A stretch of DNA of 64,000 bases from Vicinamibacterales bacterium (GCA_035463475.1 DATHTE010000123.1:91775-155774); one strand, 5' to 3'; positions 12,025 through 54,000 are shown, numbered from the stretch's first letter. Notes: generated from the sequence alone by a model not told the origin. Translations and numbers: made by a program.

Positions 12025-12653
12025 CGGAGGTGGACGAGCCCGGACTGGATCGCGTACACCACCAGTTCAGCAGTCTTGTGGACGTCGAGCGCGTTCATGA
12101 TGTTGGCGCGGTGGACGGCGATTGTGTTCACGCTCAACGACAGGCGCGCGCCGATCTCCCGGTTGGAGAGCCCCTGGCAGATCAGCTCCAGCACCTGGAG
12201 CTCGCGCGCGGTCAGGGTGCGGGATCGGTCCCCCTTCCTGGGCGTGTCGGGGACGCTGAGTCCCGGGTCGAGAACCTGCTCCCCCGAGGCGACCTTCCGC
12301 ACCGCCGCGGGCAGATCCAGGTCGAGCGCGCTCTTCAGGATGTACCCGCGGGCGCCCGCGTCGAGCGCCTGCCGGACGAGCGTGCTCTCCGCGTGCATGC
12401 TCAGGATCAGGACGGCGATCCCGGGTGAGGCCGCGAGAATCTGGCGCATCGCCACCAGCCCGTTCACGCCGGGCATCGCGCAATCCATCACCACGACGCG
12501 GGGGGCGAGGCTGGCGGCCAGCGGCACCGCCTCGTCGCCGGTGCTCGCCTCGCCAACGACGACGATCCCGGGGTCATCTTCCAGGAGGCGGCGAAACCCG
12601 CGGCGGACGAGAACGTGATCGTCAACGAGAAGAACGGTAATCGCTTCGGTCAT
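12021..12653 (-). CDS. NarL/FixJ-family response regulator (REC + LuxR-type HTH)
   Basis: ATG at 12653. VLLVDDHVLVRRG...VVVMDCAMPGVNG (phospho-acceptor Asp region) and LTARELQVLELICQGLSNREIGARLSLSVNTIAVHRANIM (LuxR HTH). ATGA overlaps at both ends (12650-12653 and 12021-12024). Confidence 0.95.
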   Translation of the reverse strand: MTEAITVLLVDDHVLVRRGFRRLLEDDPGIVVVGEASTGDEAVPLAASLAPRVVVMDCAMPGVNGLVAMRQILAASPGIAVLILSMHAESTLVRQALDAGARGYILKSALDLDLPAAVRKVASGEQVLDPGLSVPDTPRKGDRSRTLTARELQVLELICQGLSNREIGARLSLSVNTIAVHRANIMNALDVHKTAELVVYAIQSGLVHLR

Positions 12654-13987
12654 ACCCCTTGTGCGTTGGCCGGGACGCGTAGCCGGACCAGCGTGCCGCC
12701 CCCGGGCGGTGTCGCGAACTCGATTGTGCCGCCGACCAGCTCGGCGCGCTCGCGCATCGACACCATGCCGAGGCCGCGCCGATCGGGCGAACCGTTCAGA
12801 CCGGCCCCGTGGTCCTCGACGTCCAGCTCGAGGGTGCCGTTGACGGCGCGGAGGCGCACCGCCGCCTCTGCCGCGCCAGAGTGGTGCGCCACGTTGCGCA
12901 ACGCCTCCTGGAGGATGCGGTACACGTGGATGCCGGTTTCCTTCTGGACGCGCACGGGAGGTCCCGACCTCTCGAACGAGACCGTGATGCCAAGCTGGCG
13001 CTTCACGTTCGACATATACCACTCGACCGCCTCGTCCAGCCCCGCGTCGTCGAGAATCGAGGGGTGCAGGGCCTGCGAGAGACTGCGCACGTGGTCCAGC
13101 GTGGTCTGCGCGATCTCGGAGACCTCCCGCAGCTCGGCGCGCAAAGGGGACGCCTCGGGCGCGTGATTGCCGGCACGCCGCAGCATTGAACCCATCGCGG
13201 TGAGCATCTGCCCGAACTCGTCGTGCAGCTCGCGCGCGAGGGCGCGCAAGGTGGCTTCCCGGGCCGCAATGAGCTGCTGCGCGAGCTCGCGCCGCCGCTC
13301 CGACAGCGTTCCGATCTCCGCGAACAGTCGGCGGTTGGCGCGAATGACCGAGGCACTGGCCAGGATGATCGCCACCAGCGTGGCGCCCAGGAATAGGTAC
13401 ACCTGTCGCTGGACGTCGCTGTAGATGCCCTGCACCTGGAGCGCCATCTGCTGCTCGCTCTCGTTGTTCTCGACGAGAAGGCGGGCCACGGTGGTGGCAA
13501 GCGCCGCCTGTCGCGCAACGAGGGACAGCCGGATCTGCGCGCGAGCCTCGTCCTCTTGGCCGTCTCGCGCCATCGCGAACATGCGATCCACGGCGTCCCA
13601 GAACTGCGTCACCGAGTTGCCCAGGAACTCGCGCTGGCCGGGGCTTCGGCGGTGCATCGCCAGCGCTTCCTCGCGTCGCAGCGCGTCAGCCAGGTCCAGC
13701 CGGATGCGGTCGAGCTGCGAGCTCCACGCCGTGAGCGGGTATCGCCCCTCGGTGTCGATCATGTCGCGCATCGCAAGCGCAAGGAGGTTCAGGTTGTTCT
13801 GGATGCGCAGCAACTGGAGCGAGTCCTTGCGGCTTCGCTCGGCGAAATCGGTCTGGAGCGCCCGCAGCCGGGCGATCTGCTCCGTGATGTACCACGAGTA
13901 GGCCAACACGGCAGCAAGCGTGATGAGTAGCCCGATGACGAGCCCGATTGTCGGCGAGCGGCCATGCCCGCGCGATGGTGCCTCCAT
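12650..13987 (-). CDS. Sensor histidine kinase (periplasmic helical sensor, HisKA_3 + HATPase_c; NarX/DegS type)
   Basis: Two TM helices flank a roughly 160-aa helical sensor. ELHDEFGQMLTAM is the H-box of HisKA_3. LQEALRNVAHHSGA (N box), DHGAGL and GLGMVSMRERAELVGG (G boxes). Confidence 0.9.
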   Translation of the reverse strand: MEAPSRGHGRSPTIGLVIGLLITLAAVLAYSWYITEQIARLRALQTDFAERSRKDSLQLLRIQNNLNLLALAMRDMIDTEGRYPLTAWSSQLDRIRLDLADALRREEALAMHRRSPGQREFLGNSVTQFWDAVDRMFAMARDGQEDEARAQIRLSLVARQAALATTVARLLVENNESEQQMALQVQGIYSDVQRQVYLFLGATLVAIILASASVIRANRRLFAEIGTLSERRRELAQQLIAAREATLRALARELHDEFGQMLTAMGSMLRRAGNHAPEASPLRAELREVSEIAQTTLDHVRSLSQALHPSILDDAGLDEAVEWYMSNVKRQLGITVSFERSGPPVRVQKETGIHVYRILQEALRNVAHHSGAAEAAVRLRAVNGTLELDVEDHGAGLNGSPDRRGLGMVSMRERAELVGGTIEFATPPGGGTLVRLRVPANAQGV

Positions 13988-13989
13988 AA

Positions 13990-14031
13990 TTGATCGCCCG
14001 CAGGTTGATCGCCCGCAGGGGCACCTATACT
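13990..14031. promoter_or_regulatory. Perfect 15-bp tandem direct repeat (TTGATCGCCCGCAGG x2) plus a TATACT box, in a 54-bp divergent intergenic region
   Basis: 13990-14004 and 14005-14019 are identical. TATACT lies at 14026-14031, 10 nt before the KS ATG (14042). The region lies between the kinase start (13987, minus) and the KS operon start. Confidence 0.6.
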
Positions 14032-14041
14032 ATTCCGGCTC

Positions 14042-15262
14042 ATGGATGCACGTCCACGCGTCGTGATCACGGGAATCGGGGTCGTCACCTCGATTGGCAC
14101 CGGCGTCGGGCCGTTCTGGCAGGCGCTTCTCGCCGGCTCGTGCGGCATCGGCCCGGTCGCTTCGTTCGACACGACCCGGCACGCCGCGCACATCGGCGGG
14201 GAGGTGAAGGGCTTCGATCCCTCGAAGTTCCTTCGGCGCCTCGCGCCCACGTCAATGGGGCGTGCGTCCCAGATGGCAATCGCGGCGGCGCGGCTTGCCC
14301 TCGAGGACGCCGGCTTCGCCAATGGGGGCCCGTATCCCGCGGGAATCGGGGTCTCGCTCGGGACGACGTCGGGCGAGCCCACCCTGATCGAGCGGTTCAA
14401 CGAACTGGAGGTCGCCGGGACACGCGAGGCGATCGGCGCGGAGTTCATCGAAAAATATCCGTGTCATACGATCGCGGCGCACGTGGCGTCCGAACTCAGC
14501 TTCACCGGACCCAACCTCGTCATTCCCACGGCCTGTGCCGCGGGAAACTACGCCCTCGCCTTCGCCTCCGACGCCATCCGCGCCGGAACGGTGGACGTGA
14601 TGCTTGCCGGCGGCTCCGACTGCTTCTCCCGGATCACATACACTGGCTTCTCGCGACTGGGCGCGATCGCGCCGGAACGCTGCCAGCCGTTCGACCGGAA
14701 CCGGAAGGGGATGGTGCCCGGCGAGGGGGCGGCGGTGCTGGTGCTGGAGCGGTTCGACCGGGCCGTCGCGCGAGGGGCGCGGATCTATGCGGAGCTGGCC
14801 GGCTACGGGCTGACGTGCGACGCGAACCACATGACCGCGCCGCAGGGGGACGGCGCCGTCCGCGCGATGCAGCTGGCGATGGCGGATGCGGGCGTCGAGC
14901 CTCACGAGGTCAGCTACATCAGCGCTCACGGGACCGGAACGGCCGTGAACGACCGCGTCGAGACGGCGGCGGTCAAGCAGGCGTTCGGTGGCGCGGCGCC
15001 GCACGTGCCAATAAGCTCCATCAAGTCCATGCTCGGGCACACGATGGGGGCCGCGTCGGCCATCGAAGCGGCGGCGTGCGTCCTCGCGGTGTACGATGGG
15101 ATGTTGCCGCCGACGATCAACTACGAAACGCCGGATCCCCAGTGTGACCTCGACTACGTTCCCAACGAGGCGCGGCGTCAACCGGTGGACGTCGCCATGA
15201 ACAACGCCTACGCGTTCGGGGGGAACAACGCCTCGGTGATTGTGCGAGCGTGCCGGCCGTGA
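14042..15262 (+). CDS. Beta-ketoacyl-ACP synthase (KAS II / FabF-like) with intact Cys-His-His triad
   Basis: VVITGIGVVTSIG; GPNLVIPTACAAGNYA (active-site Cys); YISAHGTGTAVND (His); SIKSMLGHTMGAAS (His); NAYAFGGNNASVIV. Confidence 0.95.
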   Translation: MDARPRVVITGIGVVTSIGTGVGPFWQALLAGSCGIGPVASFDTTRHAAHIGGEVKGFDPSKFLRRLAPTSMGRASQMAIAAARLALEDAGFANGGPYPAGIGVSLGTTSGEPTLIERFNELEVAGTREAIGAEFIEKYPCHTIAAHVASELSFTGPNLVIPTACAAGNYALAFASDAIRAGTVDVMLAGGSDCFSRITYTGFSRLGAIAPERCQPFDRNRKGMVPGEGAAVLVLERFDRAVARGARIYAELAGYGLTCDANHMTAPQGDGAVRAMQLAMADAGVEPHEVSYISAHGTGTAVNDRVETAAVKQAFGGAAPHVPISSIKSMLGHTMGAASAIEAAACVLAVYDGMLPPTINYETPDPQCDLDYVPNEARRQPVDVAMNNAYAFGGNNASVIVRACRP

Positions 15263-16485
15263 ACGCGTGCAGGAGCGTCGTGATCACCGGCATGGGGGCC
15301 ATCTGCGCCCTCGGCGACCGGCTCGACCAGGTTTTTGCCGCGCTTTGCGAAGGAGCGCGGCCGTTCGCGTCTCCGACCCTGTTCCCGCCCGACGCGGCGC
15401 CGGGACATCTTGCCGCGGAAGTGCGCGAGTTCACGCCCGAGCGCTATCTGCGCCCGGGCAACATCCGGCCGCTCGATCGGACCGGGCGTCTCGCGCTCGT
15501 CGGCGTGGAGCTCGCGCTGGCGGACAGCGGCTGGTCGATCGAGCTCCGCAAGACGCGCGACGTCGGCCTCGTCTGGGGCACGATGCTCTCCGGCGTGCAC
15601 ACGATCGGCGAGTTCGACCGCCGCGCCCTGCAGGCCGGCCCCGAATACGCGAGCGCGCTCGACTTTTCGAACACCGTGCTGAACGCGGCCGGCGGCCAGG
15701 TCGCGATCTGGCAGCAGCTTCGCGGCATCAACTCGACCACGGCCGGCGGCGCCGCGTCCGGCGTGCTGGCGCTCGGCTACGCGGCGCAGCTGATTCGGAC
15801 CGGCCGGGCGGACGTGCTGCTGGCGGGCGGCGCCGAGGAGCTTTCGTTCGAGTCGTTCCTCGGCTTCGCGCGCGCCGGCTGGCTCGCGTGCCAGCATGAC
15901 GGCGTCGAGGCATGCGCCGTCCCGTTCGACGCCACCCGCAACGGCGCGGTGCTCGGCGAAGGGGCGGCCTTCCTCGTGCTCGAAGCGGAGCAGACGGCCG
16001 TGGAACGCGGGGCGCGGATCATCGGGCGGGTCCTCGGCAGCGCCAACGGTTACGATCCCGGCGCCCGGACGCGCGGCGCCGAACAGGGGAAGCCCCTCGC
16101 CGACACGATTGCGCGGGCGCTCCGCGACAGCGACACCGAGGCGCGCGCCATCGGCGTCGTCTCCGCGTCGGCGCATGGCAGTCCGGTGCTCGACCGGCGC
16201 GAAGCTGCCGGCATCGAAGCGGCGCTCGGCGCAAGGACGCCGGTGACGGCGATCAAAGCGATGACCGGTGAAACGCTCGGCGCCTCCGGTCCGCTGCAGG
16301 CGATCGTGGCGATCGAGGCGATGCGCGCGGGACGGCTGCCGGGAATCGCGGGCCTCGTCACGCCGGATCCCGCGGTCCGTCTCGACATCGCCGCCGCCAC
16401 GCGGCCGCTCGATGCCTCGCGCGCGCTCGTGACCGCGCTCACGCCAGAGGGCAACTGCGCGGCCCTGGTGCTTCAGGTCGGCTGA
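15250..16485 (+). CDS. Ketosynthase-fold partner lacking the catalytic Cys and second His (chain-length-factor-like)
   Basis: It has the KS fold (VVITGMGAICALG, LLAGGAEE, VLGEGAAFLVLE). The Cys position reads INSTTAGGAASG (Gly) and the GHT motif reads AIKAMTGETLGASG (Glu). It overlaps the upstream KS by 13 nt. Confidence 0.85.
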   Translation: MPAVNACRSVVITGMGAICALGDRLDQVFAALCEGARPFASPTLFPPDAAPGHLAAEVREFTPERYLRPGNIRPLDRTGRLALVGVELALADSGWSIELRKTRDVGLVWGTMLSGVHTIGEFDRRALQAGPEYASALDFSNTVLNAAGGQVAIWQQLRGINSTTAGGAASGVLALGYAAQLIRTGRADVLLAGGAEELSFESFLGFARAGWLACQHDGVEACAVPFDATRNGAVLGEGAAFLVLEAEQTAVERGARIIGRVLGSANGYDPGARTRGAEQGKPLADTIARALRDSDTEARAIGVVSASAHGSPVLDRREAAGIEAALGARTPVTAIKAMTGETLGASGPLQAIVAIEAMRAGRLPGIAGLVTPDPAVRLDIAAATRPLDASRALVTALTPEGNCAALVLQVG

Positions 16486-17723
16486 TGGCGCACAACCCCA
16501 AGGTCGAGGGCCCGCATCCCACCGCCCCGCCTGCGGCCGGACTTCCTCTCGTGCCGCGGTTCAGCGCCCAGGGCTACAGCCAGGAAGAGGTGCGGCAGCG
16601 GCGAGCGTGGGTCCAGGACCAGGCCGGAGTGGAGCTTCCGCTCGTCGCATCGTGCGCGATTCCGACCGAGCAGATGCGCGGCAACATCGAGAACCCGATC
16701 GGCGCGGTGCAGATGCCGCTCGGCATCGCGGGGCCGCTGCTCGTGCACGGCGAGCACGCGCGCGGCATGTTTTACGTGCCGATGGCGACCACCGAAGGAG
16801 CGCTCGTCCGGTCCTACGAGCGCGGCATGGTCATGCTCACGCGCGCCGGCGGTGTCACGGTCCGCGTGTTCGCGGACGAGAACCTCGTCTCGCCGATCTT
16901 CACGTTCGAGTCGGTCGCGGAGGCGCACCGCTTCGTCGCGGAGCTGCCGCGGCACTTCGATTCGCTCCGCGCCGAGGCCGAGTCCACGACCCGGCACGGC
17001 CGCCTCCTGCGCGTCGAGCCGCGCCCCTCCGGCCGGGCGGTCATCGTCAACTTCTACTACCACACCGCCGACGCCCAGGGCATGAACATGATCGTCAAGG
17101 CCACCGAGCACGCGGCCGCATGGCTCGTGGCGCGCGGCGTGGCGCCGCGCTTCAGGGTGTTCAGCGGTCTCAGCAGCGAGAAGCGGGCGAGCGGGTTCCT
17201 GCTAGGCGGCGGGAAGGGGAAGCGCGTCGTCGCGGGGGCCCGCATTCCGGCGGGCGTGCTGCAGGCGTACATGCGCGTCGCGCCGCAGGAGATGGCGGCC
17301 GTCTGGCACGACACGGTCATCGGCCATCTGCAGGCCGGCGCGATCGGTTACAACGGGCACTATGCCAACGGCCTCGCTGCCATCTTCATCGCGTGCGGCC
17401 AGGACGTGGCCAACGTCGCGAACGCGGCGGTCGGCATCACCGACTACGAAGTGACGGCCGAGGGGGACCTGCACGCGAGCGTCACGTTGCCGTCGCTGAC
17501 GGTCGCCACCGTGGGAGGGGGGACCGCGCTGGGCACCAGCCGGGAGTGCCTCGGCATCCTGGGCTGCGCAGGCGCGGGGCACGCGCGGAAATTTGCCGAG
17601 ATCGTCGCGGCCGCCTTGCTCGGCGGCGAGCTGTCGATGGCCGGCGCGATCGCGTCCGGTGAGTTCGTCGCCGCGCACGAAACGTACGGACGCAATCGCC
17701 CTCCAGGCGATGGCCGGCCCTGA
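16485..17723 (+). CDS. HMG-CoA reductase-fold enzyme (class I-like catalytic domain)
   Basis: ENPIGAVQMPLGIAGPLLVHG, PMATTEGALVRS, DAQGMNM, TVATVGGGT, and LGGELSMAGAIASGEFVAAHE, which aligns to the ...GELSLMAALAAGHLVKSH C-terminal catalytic-His segment. The start shares a base with the upstream stop (TGATG). Confidence 0.9.
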   Translation: MAHNPKVEGPHPTAPPAAGLPLVPRFSAQGYSQEEVRQRRAWVQDQAGVELPLVASCAIPTEQMRGNIENPIGAVQMPLGIAGPLLVHGEHARGMFYVPMATTEGALVRSYERGMVMLTRAGGVTVRVFADENLVSPIFTFESVAEAHRFVAELPRHFDSLRAEAESTTRHGRLLRVEPRPSGRAVIVNFYYHTADAQGMNMIVKATEHAAAWLVARGVAPRFRVFSGLSSEKRASGFLLGGGKGKRVVAGARIPAGVLQAYMRVAPQEMAAVWHDTVIGHLQAGAIGYNGHYANGLAAIFIACGQDVANVANAAVGITDYEVTAEGDLHASVTLPSLTVATVGGGTALGTSRECLGILGCAGAGHARKFAEIVAAALLGGELSMAGAIASGEFVAAHETYGRNRPPGDGRP

Positions 17724-17744
17724 CCCGGGCGCACGCAGTCGTAG

Positions 17745-19247
17745 ATGAGAGCGTTCACGGCCCTTCGCGACGATCCACGTCCCGAGTACGACGTCGTGGT
17801 GATCGGCGCGGGAATCGGCGGCCTGATTTGCGCGGCGCTCCTCGCGCGCGGCGGCGCGCGCGTGCTGCTCGTGGAGCAGCACTACATGGTCGGCGGGTAC
17901 TGCAGCACGTTCCGCCGCGGCCAGTTCATCTTCGACGCGGCGACGCATTTCTACCCGCTCCTCGGCAACCCCATCACCATCACGGGCTCGCTGCTCGAAC
18001 GCCTCGGGTCGCGGACGCGCTGGGTGAAGATGGATCCCGTCGATCATTTCCATTTCCCGGACGGCAGCCGCTTCTCGGTGTCCGCCGACTTCGACGAGTA
18101 CGCCGACGAGCTGAAGGCGATGTTCCCCCACGAGGCGGAGGCGCTCGATCGCTTCTTCGCCGTCGCGCGAGACGGGTACCTCTACGGGCTCCTGCACTAC
18201 TTCCGCAGGCGGCAGCACGAACGTTTCGAGCGGCTGCGGCGCCTGACGCTGCGCGACGTCCTCAATCGCGAGTTTCACGACCGGAAGCTCAAACTCCTCC
18301 TCGCGGCCGACTGCGCGCACTGGGGGTCCCCGCCGTCGCGGACGTCGTTCGTGTTCGACTCGATGCTGCGCCTGTCCTACTTCCTCGGCAACTACTACCC
18401 GGAAGGTGGATCGCAGGTGTTTGCCGACGATCTCGCGCGGATCGTCCAGGAGCACGGCGGCGACATCCTCATGCGCTCGATGGTCGAACGGATCGTCGTC
18501 GAGCGTGGCGCGGCGGTGGGCGTGGATGTGGCCACCGGGCTCGGGCCGCGCCGCCACACCGTCCGCGTGCGCGCGGGCCACGTGGTGTCGAACGGTGACC
18601 TCGTGCGGACCCTCGAGCAGCTTCTGGGCCCCGAGACCATCGGTGAAGAGCCGATCCGCGCGGCACGGCGCCTTCGCCCGACCAGCCCGTGCTTCCTCGT
18701 GCATCTCGGCCTTCGCGACATCTCTCTCGACGCGGTCCGCGCGGCGTGCGGCTATCACTGGCGCTCGTGGGAGCCTGACGAGGTCGTGCGGGAGGCGTTC
18801 AAGGTGTTCGTGCCGACCATGTACGAACCGGCAATGGCCCCGACAGGCGGCCAGGTCGTGATCCTGCAGCGCATCATGGAACTGCGATACGACGAAGTCC
18901 CCGACTGGGCCGAGCACAAGGCCCGCATCGAGGAGGACCTGATGGGGCGCCTGGAGTCCGTCATGCCGGGCGTGTCGGAGCACATCGTCTTACGGCACAG
19001 CGCTTCCGCGCTGACGTCGTGGCGTTTCACGCTCAACCATCACGGGGCGATGCTTGGGTGGGAGATGTCGCCGGACCAGTTGGGGGAGGGGCGTCCCTCC
19101 ACGGAAGGCCCGGTGCGCAACCTTTTCTTCACAGGGCACTGGACCCGACCGGGTGGGGGCATTACCCCGGTTATTGTCTCGGCAATGGATGTGGCGGAGG
19201 CCATTCTGGGCACTACGGCTCAGCTTAGACCGGCGATTTTCGACTAG
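17745..19247 (+). CDS. Phytoene-desaturase-family (CrtI / RetSat-like) FAD-dependent oxidoreductase
   Basis: YDVVVIGAGIGGLICAALLARGGARVLLVEQHYMVGGYCSTF (dinucleotide fold + GG motif) and a C-terminal NLFFTGHWTRPGGGI motif typical of the CrtI family. Confidence 0.9.
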   Translation: MRAFTALRDDPRPEYDVVVIGAGIGGLICAALLARGGARVLLVEQHYMVGGYCSTFRRGQFIFDAATHFYPLLGNPITITGSLLERLGSRTRWVKMDPVDHFHFPDGSRFSVSADFDEYADELKAMFPHEAEALDRFFAVARDGYLYGLLHYFRRRQHERFERLRRLTLRDVLNREFHDRKLKLLLAADCAHWGSPPSRTSFVFDSMLRLSYFLGNYYPEGGSQVFADDLARIVQEHGGDILMRSMVERIVVERGAAVGVDVATGLGPRRHTVRVRAGHVVSNGDLVRTLEQLLGPETIGEEPIRAARRLRPTSPCFLVHLGLRDISLDAVRAACGYHWRSWEPDEVVREAFKVFVPTMYEPAMAPTGGQVVILQRIMELRYDEVPDWAEHKARIEEDLMGRLESVMPGVSEHIVLRHSASALTSWRFTLNHHGAMLGWEMSPDQLGEGRPSTEGPVRNLFFTGHWTRPGGGITPVIVSAMDVAEAILGTTAQLRPAIFD

Positions 19248-19312
19248 TCTTTTTCGACTAGCTGTGTAAGAATCCGCAAACTTTTTCGCCGGTCGCCGGC
19301 ACGGGAGCATCC

Positions 19313-19576
19313 ATGATCGAGGAGAATCAGATTCGCGAGACGATACGTGAGAGCGTCCACCGCATCACCGGGATTGCGCCGGCCGAGATCCACGAGACCT
19401 CGAGCTACCGCGAGGATCTCGGGCTCGACTCTCTCTCGGCGCTCGAAGTGGTGATCGACCTGGAGTACGCATTCAAGATCAAGGTTCCGGAAGAGCGAAT
19501 CCAGACGATCAGGAACGTGCAGGATACGATCGACGTGGTGCAGGAATACCTTTCGGCACCCGCTCGGACGGCGTAG
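19313..19576 (+). CDS. Acyl carrier protein
   Basis: 87 aa with EDLGLDSLSALEVVIDLE, containing the DSL phosphopantetheine attachment motif. Confidence 0.9.
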   Translation: MIEENQIRETIRESVHRITGIAPAEIHETSSYREDLGLDSLSALEVVIDLEYAFKIKVPEERIQTIRNVQDTIDVVQEYLSAPARTA

Positions 19577-19634
19577 CCGGGGGTTGGGTGTTGGTCGCGC
19601 GCGCGTGCCCGGCACCTGCTGTTTCGCATCGAAC

Positions 19635-19895
19635 ATTCCGCCGGGGTCTTTAGGGGGAATTCCGGCGAGCTTCGCCTTCAGTCATCCGCCGGGAAAGGTA
19701 TCCGCGAGCACTGGTTTCGCCTTACCGCCGGGTTGGTACGGGCGAGGACTTGGCTTCGCCGTTCCGCAAGGGGTGGGCATCGCCGAGGAATGGCGCCGGC
19801 TTCGGGTATTCCGCGGGTCAGGTCCCGGCGAGTCTGGCGTCGCCTCCGGCATTCCCAGGGGTTCGGAATTTGTTTCGGCATTCGGCATTCGGCAT
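19635..19895. repeat. Array of about 5 degenerate 39-48-bp tandem repeats ending in (TCGGCAT)x3, in an intra-operon spacer
   Basis: Units start at 19638, 19686, 19725, 19764 and 19811. Each has the pattern CCGCCGGG - N6-15 - (C/T)CGGCGAG - N1-12 - TTCGCC(T/G). A tandem TCGGCAT heptamer x3 lies at about 19875-19895. GC3 of the overlapping ORF is poor. Confidence 0.55.
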
Positions 19896-19913
19896 TAACA
19901 AGGAGTCAGTAGT

Positions 19914-21599
19914 GTGCCGGCACGAGTAGCCGTCGTCGCGTACCGCGACGGCATCGCGGAGCCCATCCTGGACGCGCTGCGACGCTCCGCCGGTGTCGAG
20001 CTTTGCGAGCGCGTGCCGATCGATCCGCAGGGAATCGATGCGGTCGCGTTCAGCCGGTACAACACGATCGTGTACTCGGCGCTCCCTGCCGCGGGTCCCT
20101 CAACGGGACCGGACTTGGGGACTGCCCGCGCGGTGTGCCAGCGGCTCGCGTCGTTGCCTCTCCGGCACGTGGTCACCATCTCCAGTGCGGCAGTCTATTC
20201 GCCGAGCCACCAGAACCTCGGTCTGCTCGAGGAGCGCGCGTTCATCCCGTCGCGCAGGAGCGCGATCGCCGATGGGTGGCGCGACGTCGAACAGATGAGC
20301 GCCCTCATCAGCCAGCGTTCGGGCGCGGCGCCGCCGGTCCGCTCGATTCTCCGTCCGGCCGCGGTGCTCGACGGCGTCGATTACTTCAGCCGCCTGCTCG
20401 GCGGACGCGTGGCTGTGACCTATCCCGGTCACGACCCGACGATCCAGCTCCTCAGCCCGTGCGACCTGGCCGACGCGATCGCGGCGGTGATTGCCGCGGG
20501 TCGCGGCGGCACGTTCAACGTGGTGCCGACGGCCGGCGTGCCGTTGCGCGCGGCGCTTCGAATCGCCGGTGTAAAGCGGCTGCCGATCGGCAGGGTGGCC
20601 CAGAACGCCGTCAGGGCGATCACCTCGCAGGCGGGCCTGGCCGTCTCGGCGGACCAGCTGAAATACATCCAGTACTCGTGGACCGTGTCGGGGGAGAAGA
20701 TTAGGCGCGAGCTCGGGTTCGTCCCCTCCCGGTCGAGCGTCCAGGCGATCGTGGAATGCATCGGCCGCGGCACTCCGGCCGATGCGGCGAAGCAGTTCGA
20801 CGACTTCGGCATGGATCCGGATTACATCCGGCGCTACTGCGGCCACCTGTTCCGGTTTCTCCACGACTACTACTGGCGTGTCGAGATCGACGGAATCTCC
20901 GAGGTGCCGCGGAAGGGGCGCGGCGTGCTCGTTGGGATGCACCGCGGGTTCATGCCTTTCGACGGCGTGATGGCGCTGCACGCGCTCGTAACGCGGCGCG
21001 GCCGCATTCCGCGGTTCCTGATTCACCCCAGCCTGACCAAGTTCCCGTTCCTGGCGGACTTCATGGCCAAGCTCGGGGGCATCATGGCCTGCCAGGAGCA
21101 CGGCGACTACGTGCTGCAGCACGACGAGCTGCTCGGCGTGTTCCCCGAGGGCATCCGGGGAACATTCACGATGTACAAGCGGGCCTACATGCTCGGCAAG
21201 TTCGGTCGCGACGAGTTCGTGCGGATGGCGCTGAGGAACCGCGCCCCCATCCTGCCCTTCGTCACCGTCGGAAGCGCGGAGATCTACCCAATCCTGCGGC
21301 GCGTGGACTGGCGGTGGTTCAAGCGCTACACGGAATGGCCGTTCCTGCCGATCACGCCAGCGCCGTTCCCGCTGCCGTCGAAGTGGCACACGCGGTATCT
21401 GCCCGCCATGCACGTCGAGGAGCAGTATCCGCCGGAGGCGGCCGAGGACCCCGCGCTGGTGCATCGCATCAGCCTCGAGGTGCGGCAGCGGATGCAGGCG
21501 GCGATTGACGACATGCTGCTGCGCCGACGCTCGATCTTCTTCGGATCGATCTTCGAGCAGGCGCGCCCGCCGGAAGGCGAGGAGGCCGCGAGCATCTGA
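19914..21599 (+). CDS. Fusion protein: degenerate NAD-epimerase/SDR-like N-domain + lysophospholipid/glycerolipid acyltransferase (PlsC/LPLAT) C-domain
   Basis: GTG at 19914 with AAGGAG 10 nt upstream. The N-half resembles extended SDRs (VVTISSAAVYSP, TFNVVP), but the Gly-rich motif reads VAVVAYRDGIAEP. The C-half has GVLVGMHRGFMPFDG, GVFPEGIRGT (FPEGTR-type motif) and PILPFVTVGSAEIYP. Confidence 0.8.
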   Translation: MPARVAVVAYRDGIAEPILDALRRSAGVELCERVPIDPQGIDAVAFSRYNTIVYSALPAAGPSTGPDLGTARAVCQRLASLPLRHVVTISSAAVYSPSHQNLGLLEERAFIPSRRSAIADGWRDVEQMSALISQRSGAAPPVRSILRPAAVLDGVDYFSRLLGGRVAVTYPGHDPTIQLLSPCDLADAIAAVIAAGRGGTFNVVPTAGVPLRAALRIAGVKRLPIGRVAQNAVRAITSQAGLAVSADQLKYIQYSWTVSGEKIRRELGFVPSRSSVQAIVECIGRGTPADAAKQFDDFGMDPDYIRRYCGHLFRFLHDYYWRVEIDGISEVPRKGRGVLVGMHRGFMPFDGVMALHALVTRRGRIPRFLIHPSLTKFPFLADFMAKLGGIMACQEHGDYVLQHDELLGVFPEGIRGTFTMYKRAYMLGKFGRDEFVRMALRNRAPILPFVTVGSAEIYPILRRVDWRWFKRYTEWPFLPITPAPFPLPSKWHTRYLPAMHVEEQYPPEAAEDPALVHRISLEVRQRMQAAIDDMLLRRRSIFFGSIFEQARPPEGEEAASI

Positions 21600-21783: not shown

Positions 21784-22242
21784 GTGGAGATGCGCGAAGT
21801 GGCCAAGTCGATCCTCGGGCTCTCGTGGGCAGTGTCGCTGTTTGGCTTTCAGCAGCTGTCGAAGGCGATGACACCGGCGACGACCCAGCCGTGTGACGTG
21901 ACCGCGACGGAGGTCGATGAAGTGTCGCGCGCGGTGCAGAGTCGGCTCTCCGACTCCGCCGCGCAGCAGTTCCGCGCCGGCGACGAGTGGCAGCGCCGCA
22001 TGGTGGACATCATGTTCGACATGGCGTCGCTGCGGGCGGTCGAGCCGCGCAAGATGGTCGAGGTTCTCGACCCGCGGACGCTGATTGAGACTGCCGATCC
22101 GCGCGCGATGATCGAAACGAGCGTGACCGTGATCCAGAAGAGCATCGACACCGCCGTGAACGCCATGCGGCAGACCGCCGACACGGCCATGGACCTGACC
22201 AAGCGGGCCGTCGATTCGGTCAGGCCATCGGCGACAGCGTAG
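21784..22242 (+). CDS. Hypothetical protein (152 aa); stand-alone copy of the N-terminal module of the 24044 and 33420 proteins
   Basis: GTG at 21784 (AAAGG upstream). EVAKSILGLSWAVSLFGFQQLSKAMTP aligns with DLLKSTLTLPWAISMFGVQQLTNLVTP (24044 protein). ...WQRRMVDIMFDM aligns with ...MQRAMVDLMMF. Confidence 0.6.
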   Translation: MEMREVAKSILGLSWAVSLFGFQQLSKAMTPATTQPCDVTATEVDEVSRAVQSRLSDSAAQQFRAGDEWQRRMVDIMFDMASLRAVEPRKMVEVLDPRTLIETADPRAMIETSVTVIQKSIDTAVNAMRQTADTAMDLTKRAVDSVRPSATA

Positions 22243-22299
22243 TACGACCCTGCGGCGCCGCACGGCGCATGGTCGCACGGGGGGCCGTGCGGAGATCGG

Positions 22300-24021
22300 A
22301 TGGAGACTGCGGTTCACCACGGCGGCTACGTGACGCGGCACCGTGCCGCGCTGGCTGCCGCGCGGCCGATTCTGCGGCGGCTGCCCCACATCCTCCGGGT
22401 GGTGATCGCTCACGGGATCGCGAATGTCGTCGCGTCCCGCCCCCGCCTGCGATGGCTCGCGCGCTGGGCGCCGCTCGCCCGGCTCACCGGTCCGGAGCGC
22501 TTCCGGCGCCTGTTCGAGGACCTCGGCGGGAGCTTCGTCAAGTTCGGGCAGATGCTCGCGCTCCAGCCCGACATCGTCTCCCTCGAGTACTGCGACGAGC
22601 TGTTCAACCTACTCGATCGCATGGCGCCGTTCCCCTACGAGTTCGTCGAGCAGGTCTTCCGGGAGGAGCTGGGCCAGTCACCCTCCGACCTCTTCGATCA
22701 CTTCGATCCCGTGCCGCTGGCGACCGCGTCAATCGGGCAGGTTCATGCCGCGGTCCTGCACGGGCGCAAGGTCGCCGTGAAGGTGCAGCGCCCGGGCGTC
22801 GAGGCCGACTTCGACGGCGACCTCCGCCTGCTCGTGCTCGCCATGCGGTTCATCCGGCGCCTGCAGGTGAGGTCGCTCTACTGGGTGCTCGATCCCGGCG
22901 GTGAGTTCATCTCCTGGACGCGCGAGGAGCTCGACTACCGACGCGAGGCGCGGTACGCCGAGCGGCTGCGGCGCAACGCGGAGTTCAACCCCCAGGAGCG
23001 TGTGCCGGCCATCGTATGGGAGCTGACGACCCGCCGCACGCTGGTGATGGAGTTCATGTCGGGGATGACCGTCCTCGACTACCTGCGCGCCCTCACGACC
23101 GGCGACGAGTGGACGACGTACCGGCTGCGAGCCGACGGGTTCGACCCGAACCTCTTCGCGCGGCACATCATCGACAACTTTCTCGGCGATGCATTTCAGT
23201 ACGGCGTCTTTCATGCCGACCTGCATCCTGCGAACCTTCTCGTGCTGCCGCAGAACGTGGTCGGGTACGTGGACTTCGGCATCACCGGCGTGCTGAGCCG
23301 CTACTCGCGGCGCCACCTGGTCGAGATGACGCTCGCCTACACGCGCGCGGACGTCCGCGGCATGGCCGACGCGTACTTCAAGCTCGTGACGTATCGATCC
23401 GATGCCGACCCCGATCTGTTCCGGCGGCTGCTGGCCGAGACGTCGCAGGACTGGTATGAAGAGGGCGAGGCGGAGACGGTCTTCAGGAAGAACTTCACGC
23501 TGGTGATGCTGGACTTCCTGACGCTGTCGCGCAAGGCGGGTATCGGGCCCGAGCGGGATGTGGTTAAATACATCCGCTCGACCATCGCGGCAGACGGGCT
23601 CATCACGCGGTTTGCGCCCGGGTTCAGCGTGGGACGCCACCTCGAGGACGTCTGCCAGCAATGGATCGCTCGCGAAGCGCGCCGAGTCGCGTTCAGCTAC
23701 AACACGTTGACGGCCCTCGTCGCCTCCGGCGGCCGGCTGATCGAAGACGGGCCCGCGCGCGCCGCCTCCGTGCTGCGGCGGGTCGCCGAGGGCGAAGCCC
23801 TCGGTCGCGTCGACATCACGACAATCGCCCGGCGTGACGAACGCGTGCGCAAGCGCACGATTCGGCTCGCGGGAATCGCCGTGGCGTTCACGGCGTTGCT
23901 CGAGCTCACGGGCGCGGCGCCGGAGCTGGGGCTGAATCTCTTTACCGTCGAAGCGGCACTCGTGGCGGGTGCGTTGCTCCTGCTCGCAGACTCTCTGAGA
24001 GAACTTGCTTTTGCCGGCTGA
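22300..24021 (+). CDS. ABC1/UbiB-family atypical protein kinase (canonical motifs), two C-terminal TM helices
   Basis: GGSFVKFGQMLALQPDIV (KxGQ motif), ASIGQVHAAVL.GRKVAVKVQRPG (catalytic Lys), FHADLHPANLLV, and YVDFGITG (DFG). GGAG lies upstream of ATG 22300. Confidence 0.9.
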   Translation: METAVHHGGYVTRHRAALAAARPILRRLPHILRVVIAHGIANVVASRPRLRWLARWAPLARLTGPERFRRLFEDLGGSFVKFGQMLALQPDIVSLEYCDELFNLLDRMAPFPYEFVEQVFREELGQSPSDLFDHFDPVPLATASIGQVHAAVLHGRKVAVKVQRPGVEADFDGDLRLLVLAMRFIRRLQVRSLYWVLDPGGEFISWTREELDYRREARYAERLRRNAEFNPQERVPAIVWELTTRRTLVMEFMSGMTVLDYLRALTTGDEWTTYRLRADGFDPNLFARHIIDNFLGDAFQYGVFHADLHPANLLVLPQNVVGYVDFGITGVLSRYSRRHLVEMTLAYTRADVRGMADAYFKLVTYRSDADPDLFRRLLAETSQDWYEEGEAETVFRKNFTLVMLDFLTLSRKAGIGPERDVVKYIRSTIAADGLITRFAPGFSVGRHLEDVCQQWIAREARRVAFSYNTLTALVASGGRLIEDGPARAASVLRRVAEGEALGRVDITTIARRDERVRKRTIRLAGIAVAFTALLELTGAAPELGLNLFTVEAALVAGALLLLADSLRELAFAG

Positions 24022-24043
24022 CCCTCGGCAGAAAGGCCCGGTC

Positions 24044-25429: not shown

Positions 25430-25445
25430 AGCCGGCCGCGGAGCG

Positions 25446-27029: not shown

Positions 27030-27031
27030 TC

Positions 27032-44326: not shown

Positions 44327-44896
44327 TCAGACCCTCTTCAGCGGGCGCGGGATCGTGTAGTAAACGGAGGCGATGGCGCAGCCGAAGCTCGGCGTGTCCG
44401 CCCTTGGAATGGGACGGCCCGCCAGCAGGCATACGACCGCCGGTTCGAGGTACGCCTCGTACTCGTTGTCTTCGGGGTACTTGAAATTGTCGATGGCCCC
44501 CCGGTAGACGAGGCGGCTTTCGGCGTCCACGAGAAAGGCGCGCGGCGTCTGCTGCGTGAACAGTTGGCGGGCGACCGCCGTTCCGGTGTCGTAGAGCGTC
44601 GGGAACACCAGCCCGCGCGCGGCGAGCGCCGCGCGCACGTCATCGGCCGTTTCGTCCTGTCGCGACGCAATCGCCGCGAACGCCAGCTCGGGATGCTGCT
44701 CGGAGAACTCGTTCAGGTACCGGTCGTACCGCGCGCAATGCGAGCACACGCTCGACCAGAACACCAGGACGGCGCCGCGGCCGCGCGCGGCCATCTCGTG
44801 CAGCCGCCAGGGTCCGTGCGGCGGCGTGACGAACGAGAGCGCGAAGTCGGGCAGGATGGTTCCGATTGCTTGCTCGGTGCGTTGCTCCGGCGACAT
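44327..44896 (-). CDS. Thioredoxin-fold (redoxin/TlpA-like) protein with CxxC and a conserved C-terminal GC motif, no signal peptide
   Basis: GGAGG upstream of ATG 44896. VLVFWSSVCSHCARY (CxxC), TPRAFLVD, C-terminal TPSFGCAIASVYY. About half of the residues are identical to the 49349..49921 protein by eye. Confidence 0.8.
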   Translation of the reverse strand: MSPEQRTEQAIGTILPDFALSFVTPPHGPWRLHEMAARGRGAVLVFWSSVCSHCARYDRYLNEFSEQHPELAFAAIASRQDETADDVRAALAARGLVFPTLYDTGTAVARQLFTQQTPRAFLVDAESRLVYRGAIDNFKYPEDNEYEAYLEPAVVCLLAGRPIPRADTPSFGCAIASVYYTIPRPLKRV

Positions 44897-49193: not shown

Positions 49194-49223
49194 CGTTGTT
49201 TGTGCACCGCTCCCGCGCAAGGA

Positions 49224-49239: not shown

Positions 49240-49348
49240 AGACACAGACGGCATCTGTAGATCGTGATCCGCCCATCCTCCATCGATGGGTATTCGTGTG
49301 GTCACCGGCGTTGGCCACGCTCCACTTACGACAATCTGGCGGACCGAT

Positions 49349-53886: not shown

Positions 53887-54000
53887 TCTCCTCGAACTCC
53901 GCATACCGCAAACAGATTGCGCCGACGGCCGGGTGAACCTCTGGGTGCGCGCGCCGTGCCAGCGCGCGCCGGCGGACGGCCCGGTGTGTACGAGGTGACG

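Follow-up and report, generated by a model that had tools for sequence, protein, structure and literature searches.

Six genes occupying positions 14042-21599 of the window (the whole 64,000-nucleotide stretch analysed, from the Vicinamibacterales bacterium assembly GCA_035463475.1, DATHTE010000123.1:91775-155774) bring together a ketoacyl synthase (KS) pair, an acyl carrier protein (ACP), an HMG-CoA-reductase (HMGR)-fold enzyme, a CrtI-like flavoenzyme and an acyltransferase fusion, and raise the question of which pathway such a combination serves. The six co-directional, partly overlapping genes proposed in a preliminary description were all recovered as + strand ORFs at the same coordinates (Table 1), with GC3 values of 0.87-0.91, as is usual for coding regions of this window (68% G+C). 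For the source contig (ENA ERZ27272645, k141_1152293), a separate gene prediction gave identical products for the flavoenzyme (500 aa), the ACP (87 aa) and the fusion (561 aa). The overlap of KS1 and KS2 is 13 nt with the GTG at 15250 as the start of KS2, and 4 nt (GTGA) with the GTG at 15259; the KS2 and HMGR-like genes overlap by 1 nt (TGATG). The spacer preceding the acyltransferase gene, which contains degenerate repeats of ~43 bp, (TTCGGCA)x3.3 and an AAGGAG ribosome-binding site before the GTG at 19914, is particular to this genome: the ACP gene abuts the acyltransferase gene in loci L001 and L002, and lies just upstream of KS1 in other classes.

Table 1 Features of the operon and its flanks, with positions in the window.
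Feature	Coordinates	Strand	Evidence
Response regulator, REC + LuxR/GerE HTH	12021..13022	-	Pfam Response_reg 3.9e-24, GerE 3.4e-17
HisKA_3-type sensor histidine kinase, divergent from KS1	12650..13987	-	Pfam HisKA_3, HATPase_c
Putative operon promoter region	13990..14032	+	repeats, -10-like element (sequence reading)
KS1, predicted active beta-ketoacyl-ACP synthase, amxFabF2-like	14042..15262	+	Pfam, NCBIfam, PDB match, catalytic residues
KS2, catalytically dead KS partner, chain-length-factor-like/amxFabFmut-like	15250..16485 (start maybe GTG 15259)	+	triad replaced, PDB match
Predicted HMGR-fold NAD(P)H thioester reductase, putative non-HMG substrate pocket	16485..17723	+	PF00368, PDB match, residue pattern
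CrtI-family FAD enzyme, anammox 'PDH' (kuste3607-like) type	17745..19247	+	crtI_fam, Cluster I PDH match
Dedicated acyl carrier protein	19313..19576	+	PP-binding, DSL serine
ACP-acyltransferase spacer, 337 bp, repeats + ribosome-binding site	19577..19913	+	sequence reading
Fusion: pseudo-SDR (residues 1 to about 300) + LPLAT-superfamily acyltransferase (about 300-540)	19914..21599	+	PF01553, AF2 model, Foldseek
Phasin-like 152-aa protein	21784-22242	+	Pfam, NCBIfam
ABC1/UbiB-family kinase	22300-24021	+	Pfam, NCBIfam
All-alpha 461/474-aa protein (h474)	24005-25429	+	HEAT/ARM-like solenoid model
Second ABC1 kinase	25446-27029	+	Pfam, NCBIfam
Flavin-dependent-halogenase-like enzyme	29506-31308	+	WxWxIP; PDB matches
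Carotenoid/stilbene-cleavage oxygenase	31305-32738	+	RPE65 3.1e-99

The arrangement is far beyond chance: dozens of species-level genomes show the identical gene order. The block was found across Vicinamibacterales, Blastocatellia, Thermoanaerobaculia, Holophagales and Terriglobia, synteny being kept in five acidobacterial classes; all four upstream genes are present in 44 of the 63 informative loci (about 10 further loci are cut inside KS), and in 65-66 of 81 the flavoenzyme and acyltransferase genes are neighbours. Homologues of the fusion number more than 1,400; the loci recovered from species-level genomes belong mostly to Acidobacteriota, with no cultured isolate among the best 80. Conservation in related genomes had been set beforehand as a test of the preliminary description and, the neighbourhood being strongly conserved, that objection falls.

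KS1 contains the N and C ketoacyl-synt domains, and its Cys-His-His triad and gate Phe are invariant in 36/36 orthologues. It scores 415 bits against the FabF model TIGR03150, under the 493.75 cut-off, and 402.5 against NF005589 (an NCBIfam 'beta-ketoacyl-ACP synthase II' subfamily), over the cut-off of 387. Its top PDB match is 9s5h_B, amxFabF2 of B. fulgida (488 bits, 54% identity), followed by Iga11 (357 bits) and FabF (about 320 bits). The KS matches of KS2 are weaker (98 and 57 bits), and its top PDB match is 9s5h_C, amxFabFmut. KS2 had been described as Cys-less, which is correct (Cys to Ala) and incomplete, as both His are also lost (to Ser and to Glu); the second replacement, together with the amxFabFmut tunnel residues Phe135 and Val139, is invariant in 52/52 orthologues. 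The proposal of a heterodimer-like pair with its own ACP thus gains support from a KS and dead partner that resemble a KS/chain-length-factor (CLF) heterodimer. KS2 scores higher with amxFabFmut (208 bits) than with KS1, the KS it is paired with (152 bits), which dates the pair, on these alignments, before the split between Acidobacteriota and the anammox phylum. The conserved tunnel residues suggest a short-to-medium chain.

The HMGR-like enzyme matches PF00368 (HMG-CoA_red, 1.9e-105) and 6hr7, its top PDB match (280 bits), and falls under the HMGR equivalog cut-off (TIGR00533, 322.7 against 441.8). In 57 orthologues E559, K691, D767, H866 and N755 are invariant, leaving the catalytic tetrad intact, D690 is replaced by E and K692 by R/H, K735 varies (H/R/D/Q/N) and R590 is hydrophobic throughout (V/I/M). 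The loss of the HMG-binding residues Arg590 and Lys735 points to a pocket for a substrate other than HMG, an alteration absent from the preliminary description. This substrate may be a polar, HMG-like 3-hydroxyacyl group, since S684, Arg/His at 692, N755 and H752 are kept. The nearest representatives include fusions of AMP-binding, PP-binding and HMG-CoA_red domains; among five such relatives checked, four have Arg590 and the fifth has Lys; these fusions support the use of the fold on carrier-bound thioesters and not this particular pocket.

The flavoenzyme (Amino_oxidase; crtI_fam, 163 bits, under the 238 cut-off) is 31% identical to the Brocadiaceae Cluster I PDH (262 bits, E 3e-86) and scores 79 bits against CrtI (4dgk); it would act as a desaturase or saturase on the acyl chain. 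The ACP (PP-binding, 4.9e-12, with a DSL serine) is under every NCBIfam ACP cut-off and resembles amxACP (29% identity) no more than it does ordinary ACPs. In the fusion, PF01553 covers residues 322-450 only (8.7e-11) and the N-terminal domain has no significant Pfam match. Its extended-SDR fold comes from structure prediction only: in the AF2 model (pLDDT 78.9, pTM 0.81) this half groups with NDP-sugar epimerases and NDUFA9 (Foldseek, probability 1.0). The domain had been called reductase-like, a role that is very unlikely because the cofactor and catalytic motifs are missing (no GxxGxxG, the Gly-rich nucleotide motif; YxxxK dyad replaced by an invariant W122...E126), and it appears to be a dead pseudo-enzyme. 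The acyltransferase half keeps the His, the Asp and the FPEG of its motifs HRGFMPFD (H-X6-D) and FPEGI[R/H/F]G; its activity is not certain, because the loop with the unusual H-X6-D spacing is modelled at low confidence. Nor is the label of glycerolipid acyltransferase established, since the conserved arginines of motifs II and III, which hold the phosphate of G3P, DHAP or LPA, are missing or unconserved.

By sequence, the closest known system is the core of the anammox ladderane 'Cluster I'. The acidobacterial operon and the anammox locus have only four genes in common, in the same order, and the FabZ and B12 radical-SAM genes of Cluster I are absent from the operon. The preliminary description had not recorded this specific homology. 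In vitro, amxFabF2/amxFabFmut is a heterodimer that decarboxylates malonyl-ACP, and prefers C6-C8 probes, with acetoacetyl-ACP as the only product demonstrated (preprint 10.64898/2026.05.19.726425). We see about an even chance that the conserved Acidobacteriota operon encodes a specialised carrier-protein-dependent lipid or polyketide-like pathway whose core is homologous to that of Cluster I.

In such a pathway, KS1 and the inactive KS2 would form a KS/CLF heterodimer that, with the dedicated ACP, starts a chain through decarboxylation of malonyl-ACP and then extends it, as judged from their homology to the pair characterised in vitro. The cluster encodes no enzyme for keto-reduction or dehydration, and these steps are assumed to be done by housekeeping FabG and FabZ. 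The PDH-type flavoenzyme would introduce or shift C=C bonds in the chain, and the HMGR-fold enzyme would convert the ACP- or CoA-bound thioester reductively into an aldehyde or primary alcohol, freeing the product; this release is proposed from the active-site pattern, the adenylation-carrier-HMGR fusions of relatives and the translational coupling to KS2. Finally, the acyltransferase half may esterify the product, or move the acyl chain, onto a non-phosphorylated acceptor, with the dead SDR half as a putative binding or scaffold domain. The product would be a reduced and/or unsaturated acyl lipid, for example an alcohol or diol ester.

Neither the continuation of the operon downstream (21784..32738) nor the divergent two-component system upstream had been noticed previously. 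In the Vicinamibacterales loci L002, L003, L005, L008, L009 and L011 a histidine kinase orthologue sits upstream of KS1, and the response-regulator family occurs near the cluster in 24 loci; in the ORF of the window REC begins at residue 130, which puts the probable true start near 12640. A 15-bp sequence (TTGATCGCCCGCAGG), directly repeated in tandem at 13990-14004 and 14005-14019, precedes a -10-like TATACTA (14026-14032, 9 nt 5' of the KS1 ATG) that is found at equal distance from the KS1 start in L002, L003, L008, L009 and L011. This region may have a regulatory role, and the operon is probably controlled by the divergent HisKA_3/LuxR system. The downstream genes 21784..27029 neighbour that of the acyltransferase in 37-45 of the 81 loci; the h474 model has no significant fold match. 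The WxWxIP of the halogenase-like enzyme is kept in 21/21 orthologues, and its top PDB matches are CtcP, ChlB4, CmlS and PltA; the nearest NCBIfam model of the oxygenase is lignostilbene dioxygenase (158 bits, under the cut-off).

The block is neither housekeeping fatty acid synthesis, nor the elb ether-lipid operon, nor a canonical aryl-polyene cluster. That the exact gene set corresponds to neither of the last two was rightly anticipated: comparison with literature and databases found no characterised pathway with this set. It is extremely improbable that paralogues of housekeeping fatty-acid-synthesis and lipid genes are merely adjacent, with no joint pathway; KS1 does pass the NF005589 cut-off, but gene order is shared by five classes and start codons overlap stop codons, and this synteny largely refutes the idea; the dead KS partner is conserved as well. 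The earlier exclusion of housekeeping synthesis agrees with the position of KS1 below the FabF equivalog cut-off and with the absence, also as described, of FabG-, FabZ- and FabI-type genes from the block and its surroundings (a MaoC gene 32 kb off is the nearest that resembles a dehydratase); FabD and FabH genes are likewise absent nearby, and the cluster brings no KR, DH, ER, malonyl-transferase or PPTase of its own. An isoprenoid/carotenoid locus, with a genuine mevalonate HMGR, NphT7-like acetoacetyl supply from the KS/CLF, and the CrtI-like enzyme and oxygenase acting on carotenoids, is very unlikely. The HMGR, CrtI-family, RPE65 and UbiB/ABC1 annotations are isoprenoid-flavoured, the tetrad is intact and the anammox KS/CLF makes acetoacetyl-ACP; against this stand the altered HMG-binding residues, the sub-equivalog HMGR score, the absence from the window of HMG-CoA synthase, mevalonate kinase, phytoene synthase and prenyltransferase genes, and a flavoenzyme far nearer to anammox PDHs, which fail to complement crtI (PMC4790861), than to CrtI.

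We consider unlikely a lipid-anchored polyene pigment (aryl-polyene-, xanthomonadin- or ishigamide-like), a conjugated chain built iteratively by the KS/CLF, anchored by the LPLAT and tailored or turned over by the halogenase-like enzyme and oxygenase. This accessory pair directly adjoins the acyltransferase gene in about 20 loci, but these are only about a quarter of the total. Iga11, KS1's next-best solved relative after amxFabF2, is a KS from a type II PKS that is highly reducing and forms polyenes; a CrtI-family enzyme suits polyene chemistry, and aryl-polyene clusters typically have a CLF, a dedicated ACP and an acyltransferase of the LPLAT type. However, dedicated KR or ApeI/ApeP-type dehydratases occur in 0/81 loci, and the cluster lacks aryl-starter ligase, thioesterase, glycosyltransferase and LolA/MMPL export genes. 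The tunnel residues of the CLF agree with those of the anammox enzyme that prefers C6-C8, and known aryl-polyene pathways have no place for a reductase that turns thioesters into alcohols. Also quite unlikely is the ether-lipid (alkylglycerol) route put forward in the preliminary description, in which the HMGR-fold enzyme would make a fatty alcohol, the fusion would be a GNPAT/MXAN_1675-type DHAP acyltransferase and an alkyl-DHAP synthase encoded elsewhere would form the ether bond. An alcohol-forming reductase is plausible in the operon, the fusion of a Rossmann-like domain and an acyltransferase parallels MXAN_1675, its HRG...D resembles HRSHID, the GNPAT/GPAT motif, and subdivision-4 Acidobacteria are known to have ether lipids. 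The likeness to Myxococcus elb proposed earlier fails beyond the parallel to epimerase-like ElbA/ElbE and the ElbD AGPAT domain: the elbA-E operon, as a review describes it (PMC9131029), codes for two NAD-epimerase-like proteins, a HAD phosphohydrolase, an unknown protein and ElbD (FAR-like, acyl-CoA-synthetase, ACP and AGPAT domains), with no mention of a CrtI-like enzyme or a KS. There is no AGPS, AMP-ligase or HAD gene in the operon, the window or the 81 loci; the sole protein with FAD_binding_4, an oxidase of the BBE type, lies 19 kb away and is not among the recurrent neighbour families of those loci. The missing SDR motifs and phosphate-binding arginines also argue against this route, ordinary iso-C15 chains need no dedicated KS/CLF with a C6-C8-type tunnel, and the elb-like clusters of Acidobacteriota are another gene set, centred on an ElbD that carries an adenylation domain.

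The ladderane lipid gene cluster was thought to be exclusive to anammox bacteria, and a matching chain-building core is now found in a soil acidobacterium. Joined there to an HMGR-like enzyme and an unusual acyltransferase, this core suggests that a very common phylum of soil bacteria has a lipid pathway not yet described.

The six genes of the block received in Pfam and NCBIfam the assignments already made in the preliminary description, all six confirmed (see the table), and their GC3 values were between 0.87 and 0.91 in a window with 68% G+C. The overlap of KS1 and KS2 is 13 nt, or 4 nt (GTGA) if KS2 starts at 15259, which is the more probable, and the KS2/HMGR-like junction overlaps as TGATG, indicating that the first three genes are translationally coupled. 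The product lengths of the flavoenzyme, the ACP and the fusion are identical in the gene calls of the source contig (ENA ERZ27272645, 108 kb). KS1 and the divergent histidine-kinase gene are separated by 54 bp, within which two tandem 15-bp direct repeats (TTGATCGCCCGCAGG) precede a −10-like TATACTA that lies 9 nt from the KS1 ATG; in the window and five related loci this element lies 9–11 nt ahead of the KS1 start codon. Such a layout points to a transcript with no leader or a very short one and to a putative response-regulator binding site. The ACP and acyltransferase genes are separated by a 337-bp spacer containing approximately seven degenerate 43-bp repeats and a (TTCGGCA)x3.3 tract; the spacer is absent in two close relatives (loci L001 and L002), in which both genes abut. 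Rfam gave no match anywhere in the window, spacer included, and a generic promoter/terminator scan of the window was uninformative.

Features of the gene block and its surroundings (window positions)
Feature	Position	Strand	Match or remark
FG-GAP/ASPIC-UnbV (CRTAC1-like)	10333-12024	-	
Tandem direct repeats and TATACTA	13990-14032		
KS1	14042-15262	+	ketoacyl-synt N and C; FabF TIGR03150 415 bits, below the equivalog cut-off (493.75)
KS2	15250-16485	+	KS match, much weaker
HMGR-like	16485-17723	+	HMG-CoA_red (PF00368) 1.9e-105; TIGR00533 322.7, below the class I HMGR cut-off (441.8)
CrtI-like flavoenzyme	17745-19247	+	Amino_oxidase / crtI_fam; 163 bits versus a cut-off of 238
ACP	19313-19576	+	PP-binding
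ACP-acyltransferase spacer	19577-19913		
(TTCGGCA)x3.3	19874-19896		
Pseudo-SDR::acyltransferase fusion	19914-21599	+	sole match PF01553 acyltransferase, C-terminal half
Two ABC1/UbiB-family kinases with 152-aa and 461-aa proteins	21784-27029	+	
461/474-aa protein (h474)	24005-25429		
Halogenase-like and RPE65-family oxygenase pair	29506-32738	+	adjoins the acyltransferase gene directly in ~20 related loci
BBE-type FAD oxidase	40574-42106	-	
FG-GAP/ASPIC-UnbV	41959-44319	-	
AhpC/redoxin	44327-44896		
ABC1 kinase pair	45925-49220	-	
AhpC/redoxin	49286-49921		
FG-GAP/ASPIC-UnbV	49914-52268	+	
MaoC-like dehydratase	53291-53773	-	
FadL/TodX-type outer-membrane transporter	53917-55290	+	
FG-GAP/ASPIC-UnbV	56465-58843	+	
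FG-GAP/ASPIC-UnbV	58840-60570	+	
FG-GAP/ASPIC-UnbV	61260-62999	+	

Public data contain over 1,400 homologues of the fusion protein. Scanning one genome per species yielded 173 loci, the best 80 of which were kept; their hosts are Acidobacteriota, mostly soil metagenome assemblies (Vicinamibacterales, Blastocatellia/Pyrinomonadaceae, Thermoanaerobaculia, Holophagales, Terriglobia), together with a few bins labelled Poribacteria or Nitrospinota, and the Clostridia and Rugosimonospora labels on two loci are probably wrong. The gene string was everywhere alike (tblastn and all-against-all clustering): (ACP)-KS1-KS2-HMGR-CrtI-like-(ACP)-fusion. All four upstream genes were present on the same strand in 44 of the 63 informative loci (those that extend 6.5 kb or more beyond the fusion gene on its upstream side), and approximately 10 more loci were cut inside KS1. 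The conserved gene string indicates that the block is a functional unit, and the neighbourhood, whose lack of conservation the preliminary description had named as a ground for refutation, is conserved in related genomes.

The key comparison is with Cluster I, the putative ladderane-lipid cluster of anammox bacteria. The best solved relative of KS1 was amxFabF2, the active KS of that cluster (9s5h chain B; 488 bits, 54% identity), followed by Iga11 (357 bits) and the canonical FabFs (~320 bits); the best solved relative of KS2 was the inactive KS, amxFabFmut (9s5h chain C). In Brocadia these two proteins form a KS/chain-length-factor-like heterodimer which decarboxylates malonyl-ACP and prefers C6-C8 probes, and Phe135 and Val139 of amxFabFmut line the tunnel of the inactive subunit (preprint 10.64898/2026.05.19.726425). 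KS1 orthologues retain the Cys-His-His triad and the gate Phe. In KS2 the triad Cys, His, His is changed to Ala, Ser, Glu, and the change of the second His to Glu, Phe135 and Val139 are invariant in the acidobacterial KS2 orthologues (52/52). KS1 and KS2 would form a putative KS/CLF-like heterodimer as well. KS2 scored 208 bits against amxFabFmut and 152 bits against KS1, its partner in the block, indicating that the active/inactive KS pair predates the split of the two lineages. The CrtI-like flavoenzyme matched PDH, the CrtI-family flavoenzyme (a phytoene-dehydrogenase homologue of the kuste3607 type) of the Brocadiaceae anammox locus (L081), with 262 bits (E 3e-86; 483 aa aligned, 31% identical), compared to only 79 bits for CrtI; anammox PDHs fail to complement crtI (PMC4790861). 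The ACP is 29% identical to the anammox ACP, reached ~40–46 bits with AcpM and AcpP in the PDB versus 32–34 bits with the anammox ACPs (7auf, 9s5i_E) and, judged from its sequence, does not look specifically amxACP-like.

Cluster I (Kuenenia kuste3603-3608; Brocadia amxACP, amxFabZ, amxFabF2, amxFabFmut, PDH and B12 radical-SAM) shares with the acidobacterial block the order ACP, KS, dead KS, PDH, and these four are the only genes common to the window block and the anammox locus L081, which reads ACP-FabZ-FabF2-FabFmut-PDH-B12 radical-SAM (radical-SAM gene at L081 12711-14171). FabZ and the B12 radical-SAM of Cluster I have no counterpart in any of the 81 acidobacterial loci compared: a FabA/FabZ-type family was not found among the conserved neighbours in these loci or near the cluster in the window, and neither the window nor the families conserved in these loci included a cobalamin-dependent radical-SAM. 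As the radical-SAM candidate cyclase is missing, no ladderane is expected here. The acidobacterial cluster, in turn, carries the HMGR-fold reductase and the pseudo-SDR::acyltransferase, neither of which was found in the 21-kb anammox locus. Some Deltaproteobacteria have clusters related to Cluster I (PMC2649909); literature searches on the acidobacterial gene combination and on ladderane-type clusters in Acidobacteria gave no relevant result. In the Brocadiaceae B188 chromosome (CP064969), amxFabF2 is called as two pieces of 340 aa and 61 aa (L081 8724-9949); tblastn matches it in two frames, and the split is a frameshift or assembly error in the record.

The HMGR-like enzyme has the same fold as class I HMG-CoA reductase (EC 1.1.1.34) along its full length (nearest solved relative, Methanothermococcus 6hr7, 280 bits), and its active site was mapped by alignment on human numbering in 57 cluster orthologues. 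The catalytic tetrad of class I HMGR (Glu559, Lys691, Asp767, His866) was invariant in all of them, as were Asn755, Ser565, Arg568 and Ser684. In contrast, the HMG-binding residues were not kept: Arg590 was replaced by Val (51 orthologues), Ile (5) or Met (1), and Lys735, which makes a salt bridge to the HMG carboxylate in human HMGR, by His, Arg, Asp, Gln or Asn. Other replacements were Asp690 by Glu, Lys692 by Arg/His, and Asn567 and His861 by Glu. The score was below the TIGR00533 cut-off, and the operon that contains the gene is a KS/CLF operon, not a mevalonate one; other mevalonate-pathway genes were absent from both the 64-kb window and the 81 loci.

When 1.8 billion representatives were searched exhaustively, P0241 (62% identity) was the only close full-length 50%-identity cluster; the other close HMGR-like sequences were a few fragments at 50–77% identity, and the next representatives had 49% or less. 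Lys735 was kept by only ~4 of the 150 nearest representatives. These relatives (P0241-P0390) belong to a large, apparently uncharacterised HMGR-fold superfamily, and many of the 150 have an A-T didomain or are extended at the N or C terminus. AMP-binding + PP-binding + HMGR fusions accounted for six of the 10 relatives scanned; other architectures were AfsA-HMGR, PilZ-HMGR, REC-HMGR and a C-terminal extension of ~400 aa (EcKL/APH kinase-like in both of the cases scanned). In these adenylation-carrier fusions the HMGR fold stands where a terminal thioester reductase would be, for which reason we read the window enzyme as a probable non-HMG acyl-thioester reductase. The parallel with carboxylic-acid-reductase-like A-T-R enzymes is a functional analogy only: their R domain is of the SDR type, whereas the HMGR fold of the block stands alone and would act in trans on the KS/CLF-loaded ACP. 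Most of the fusion relatives checked retain Arg590, so that the A-T-HMGR fusions support the role of the fold and not this particular pocket. The window enzyme would be a four- or two-electron reductase of a carrier- or CoA-bound non-HMG acyl thioester. Literature searches gave no relevant paper on HMGR-like thioester reductases and no characterised AMP-binding + PP-binding + HMGR fusion.

The AlphaFold model of the fusion protein (43 homologues; pLDDT 78.9, pTM 0.81) placed its N-terminal half with NDP-sugar epimerases, other extended SDRs and NDUFA9 (Foldseek probability 1.0, target TM 0.6–0.69). This half had been described as reductase-like, and only its SDR fold agrees with that: 'xRDxxA' follows strand 1 in place of GxxGxxG, and YxxxK is replaced by Trp122 and Glu126, invariant in the 43 fusion sequences. 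It is a predicted pseudo-enzyme domain, not a reductase. The acyltransferase half matches PF01553 and keeps His343, Asp350 and FPEG; its motif I is H-X6-D (HRGFMPFD) instead of the H-X4-D of AGPAT/PlsC, the Arg of motif II is absent (LGGIMACQEN), and the Arg position of motif III varies (R/H/F). In PlsC and GPAT the motif II and III arginines bind the acceptor phosphate; as they are absent or variable here, the acceptor is probably some molecule other than G3P, DHAP or LPA, such as an alcohol. The family profile gave only an insignificant epimerase match against PDB sequences, and NCBIfam has no model for the fusion family.

The divergent HisKA_3 kinase and LuxR-type response regulator are conserved neighbours of the cluster. 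Also conserved, downstream, is a group made up of two ABC1/UbiB-family kinases and, flanked by them, an all-alpha protein of 461 aa and a 152-aa protein with a weak phasin match (TIGR01841, 2e-4); a further ABC1 kinase pair lies elsewhere in the window. The N-terminal motif W-A-x-S-(L/M)-F-G-x-Q-Q-L is common to the 152-, 474- and 453-aa proteins, and, speculatively, the whole set recalls lipid-droplet or plastoglobule proteins. For the 461/474-aa family (h474), a homologue search returned hypothetical proteins only, and the AF2 model (pLDDT 80.5), an alpha-solenoid, had no significant PDB fold match and gave no functional clue; two other families (h838 and h453) are still without annotation. 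The halogenase-like protein carries the motifs WFWVIP, GAGLAG and KVGEA (best PDB matches CtcP, ChlB4, CmlS and PltA), and its gene probably starts near 29506, as the longer reading frame, from 29185, runs into the preceding gene; the RPE65-family cleavage oxygenase is nearest to lignostilbene dioxygenases, but below the cut-off. The FG-GAP/ASPIC-UnbV gene, which adjoins the cluster in 42 loci, was downgraded as a cluster member: its product has a Tat export signal (MNRREFIRAMGAAGLAGA), and there are six paralogues in the window, several of them paired with AhpC/redoxin genes. In Blastocatellia loci, an inserted FG-GAP/ASPIC-UnbV gene separates the CrtI-like gene from the acyltransferase gene. 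Further downstream are the lipid-related BBE oxidase, MaoC and FadL/TodX genes, which are not among the families recurring beside the cluster in the 81 loci.

We propose a pathway in which, by homology to the anammox pair characterised in vitro, KS1/KS2 and the ACP would start a chain by malonyl-ACP decarboxylation and then extend it, the chain being probably short to medium. Housekeeping FabG and FabZ are assumed from the context to process this chain, and the two-component system is likewise assumed to govern the promoter. Family membership and active-site patterns suggest that the PDH-type flavoenzyme would alter the saturation of the chain, the HMGR-fold enzyme would release it reductively, and the acyltransferase would form an ester. 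We give the overall scheme roughly an even chance of being right, and any particular product a far smaller one.

Several other explanations were weighed. Housekeeping FAS II was rejected, as the preliminary description had already done, since KS1 scores below the FabF cut-off and has no fabD/G/Z/I/H neighbours. Ishigamide Iga11/Iga12 (a highly reducing type II PKS) and aryl-polyene (APE) systems likewise have an active KS, a Cys-less CLF and a discrete ACP, and APE clusters also carry an LPLAT-type acyltransferase. A polyene pigment as the product would agree with the relationship of KS1 to Iga11, its second-best solved relative, and with the halogenase/oxygenase neighbours; it is nevertheless unlikely, given the C6-C8-type tunnel and the missing KR and DH genes. 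No KR, DH or ER genes were found near the block, the sole dehydratase-like gene (MaoC) being 32 kb off; the conserved neighbourhood of the 81 loci has no KR (adh_short) or hot-dog dehydratase, and neither a starter-unit ligase nor export genes are cluster-encoded in these loci. The HMGR-fold reductase and the CrtI-family enzyme, for their part, do not belong to type II PKS/APE systems. A true mevalonate/carotenoid role is very improbable, being opposed by the pocket changes in the 57 HMGR-like orthologues and by the gene context, and a chance juxtaposition of genes, excluded by the synteny, has a negligible probability.

The resemblance to the myxobacterial elb locus, suggested in the preliminary description, extends to the kinds of domain present: by gene-set description, Myxococcus xanthus elbA-E and MXAN_1676-1674 combine an AGPAT/GNPAT-superfamily acyltransferase, Rossmann-type reductase-/epimerase-like domains and a carrier protein, as here, and those loci and this cluster may both involve reduction of an activated fatty acid. 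However, the elb set is without KS/CLF, HMGR fold and CrtI-family enzyme (PMC9131029), there is no ElbD-type adenylation (AMP-binding) domain or AGPS in the window or the conserved neighbourhood and no HAD protein here, and the SDR-like domain, set against those loci, is catalytically dead. Identity with the elb operon was rejected and the resemblance not borne out, as the gene sets differ (PMC9131029 and the sponge-symbiont elb preprint). An ether-lipid route, argued for by the likeness to MXAN_1675 and ElbD/ElbE in combining Rossmann and acyltransferase domains and by the fact that ether-lipid biosynthesis in Acidobacteria is not yet settled, seems quite improbable to us: AGPS and ElbD-type genes are absent, the SDR domain is dead, and the acyltransferase lacks the phosphate-binding arginines.

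All parts of the block come from known superfamilies, and its core is a recognisable relative of anammox Cluster I. The literature searched described neither the joining of the KS/CLF/PDH core to an HMGR-fold reductase and a pseudo-SDR::acyltransferase, nor the wide distribution of this combination in Acidobacteriota, nor the homology to a supposedly anammox-specific module; Cluster I has been described as unique to ladderane producers. A more specific reading, possible but held tentatively, is that Acidobacteriota make new lipids, such as esters of unsaturated medium-chain/polyene alcohols or of 1,3-diols, through a KS/CLF-ACP-PDH core sharing an ancestor with the ladderane cluster, and that the HMGR-fold protein is a new carrier-protein thioester-to-alcohol reductase. 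If so, the acidobacterial system would define the product of the shared anammox module, and FabZ and the B12 radical-SAM would be the ladderane-specific steps.

From the standpoint of lipid and anammox research the result is unexpected, with activities and product deduced from homology and context. To our knowledge, there are no genetics for anammox bacteria, and the Cluster I core in Acidobacteriota offers a comparative handle on ladderane biosynthesis which makes part of the problem testable: the shared KS/CLF/PDH genes should make a common intermediate, open to study in a different host background, and the anammox-only FabZ and B12 radical-SAM become candidates for ladder formation. The HMGR-like enzyme and its relatives point to a largely unexplored family of putative four-electron thioester reductases, relevant to the release mechanisms of natural products and to biocatalytic alcohol production. 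Acidobacteriota rank with the most abundant bacteria in soil and have unusual lipids (ether lipids, brGDGT precursors) whose biosynthesis is unsettled; this widespread and putatively regulated lipid operon is a concrete target for work on acidobacterial lipids.
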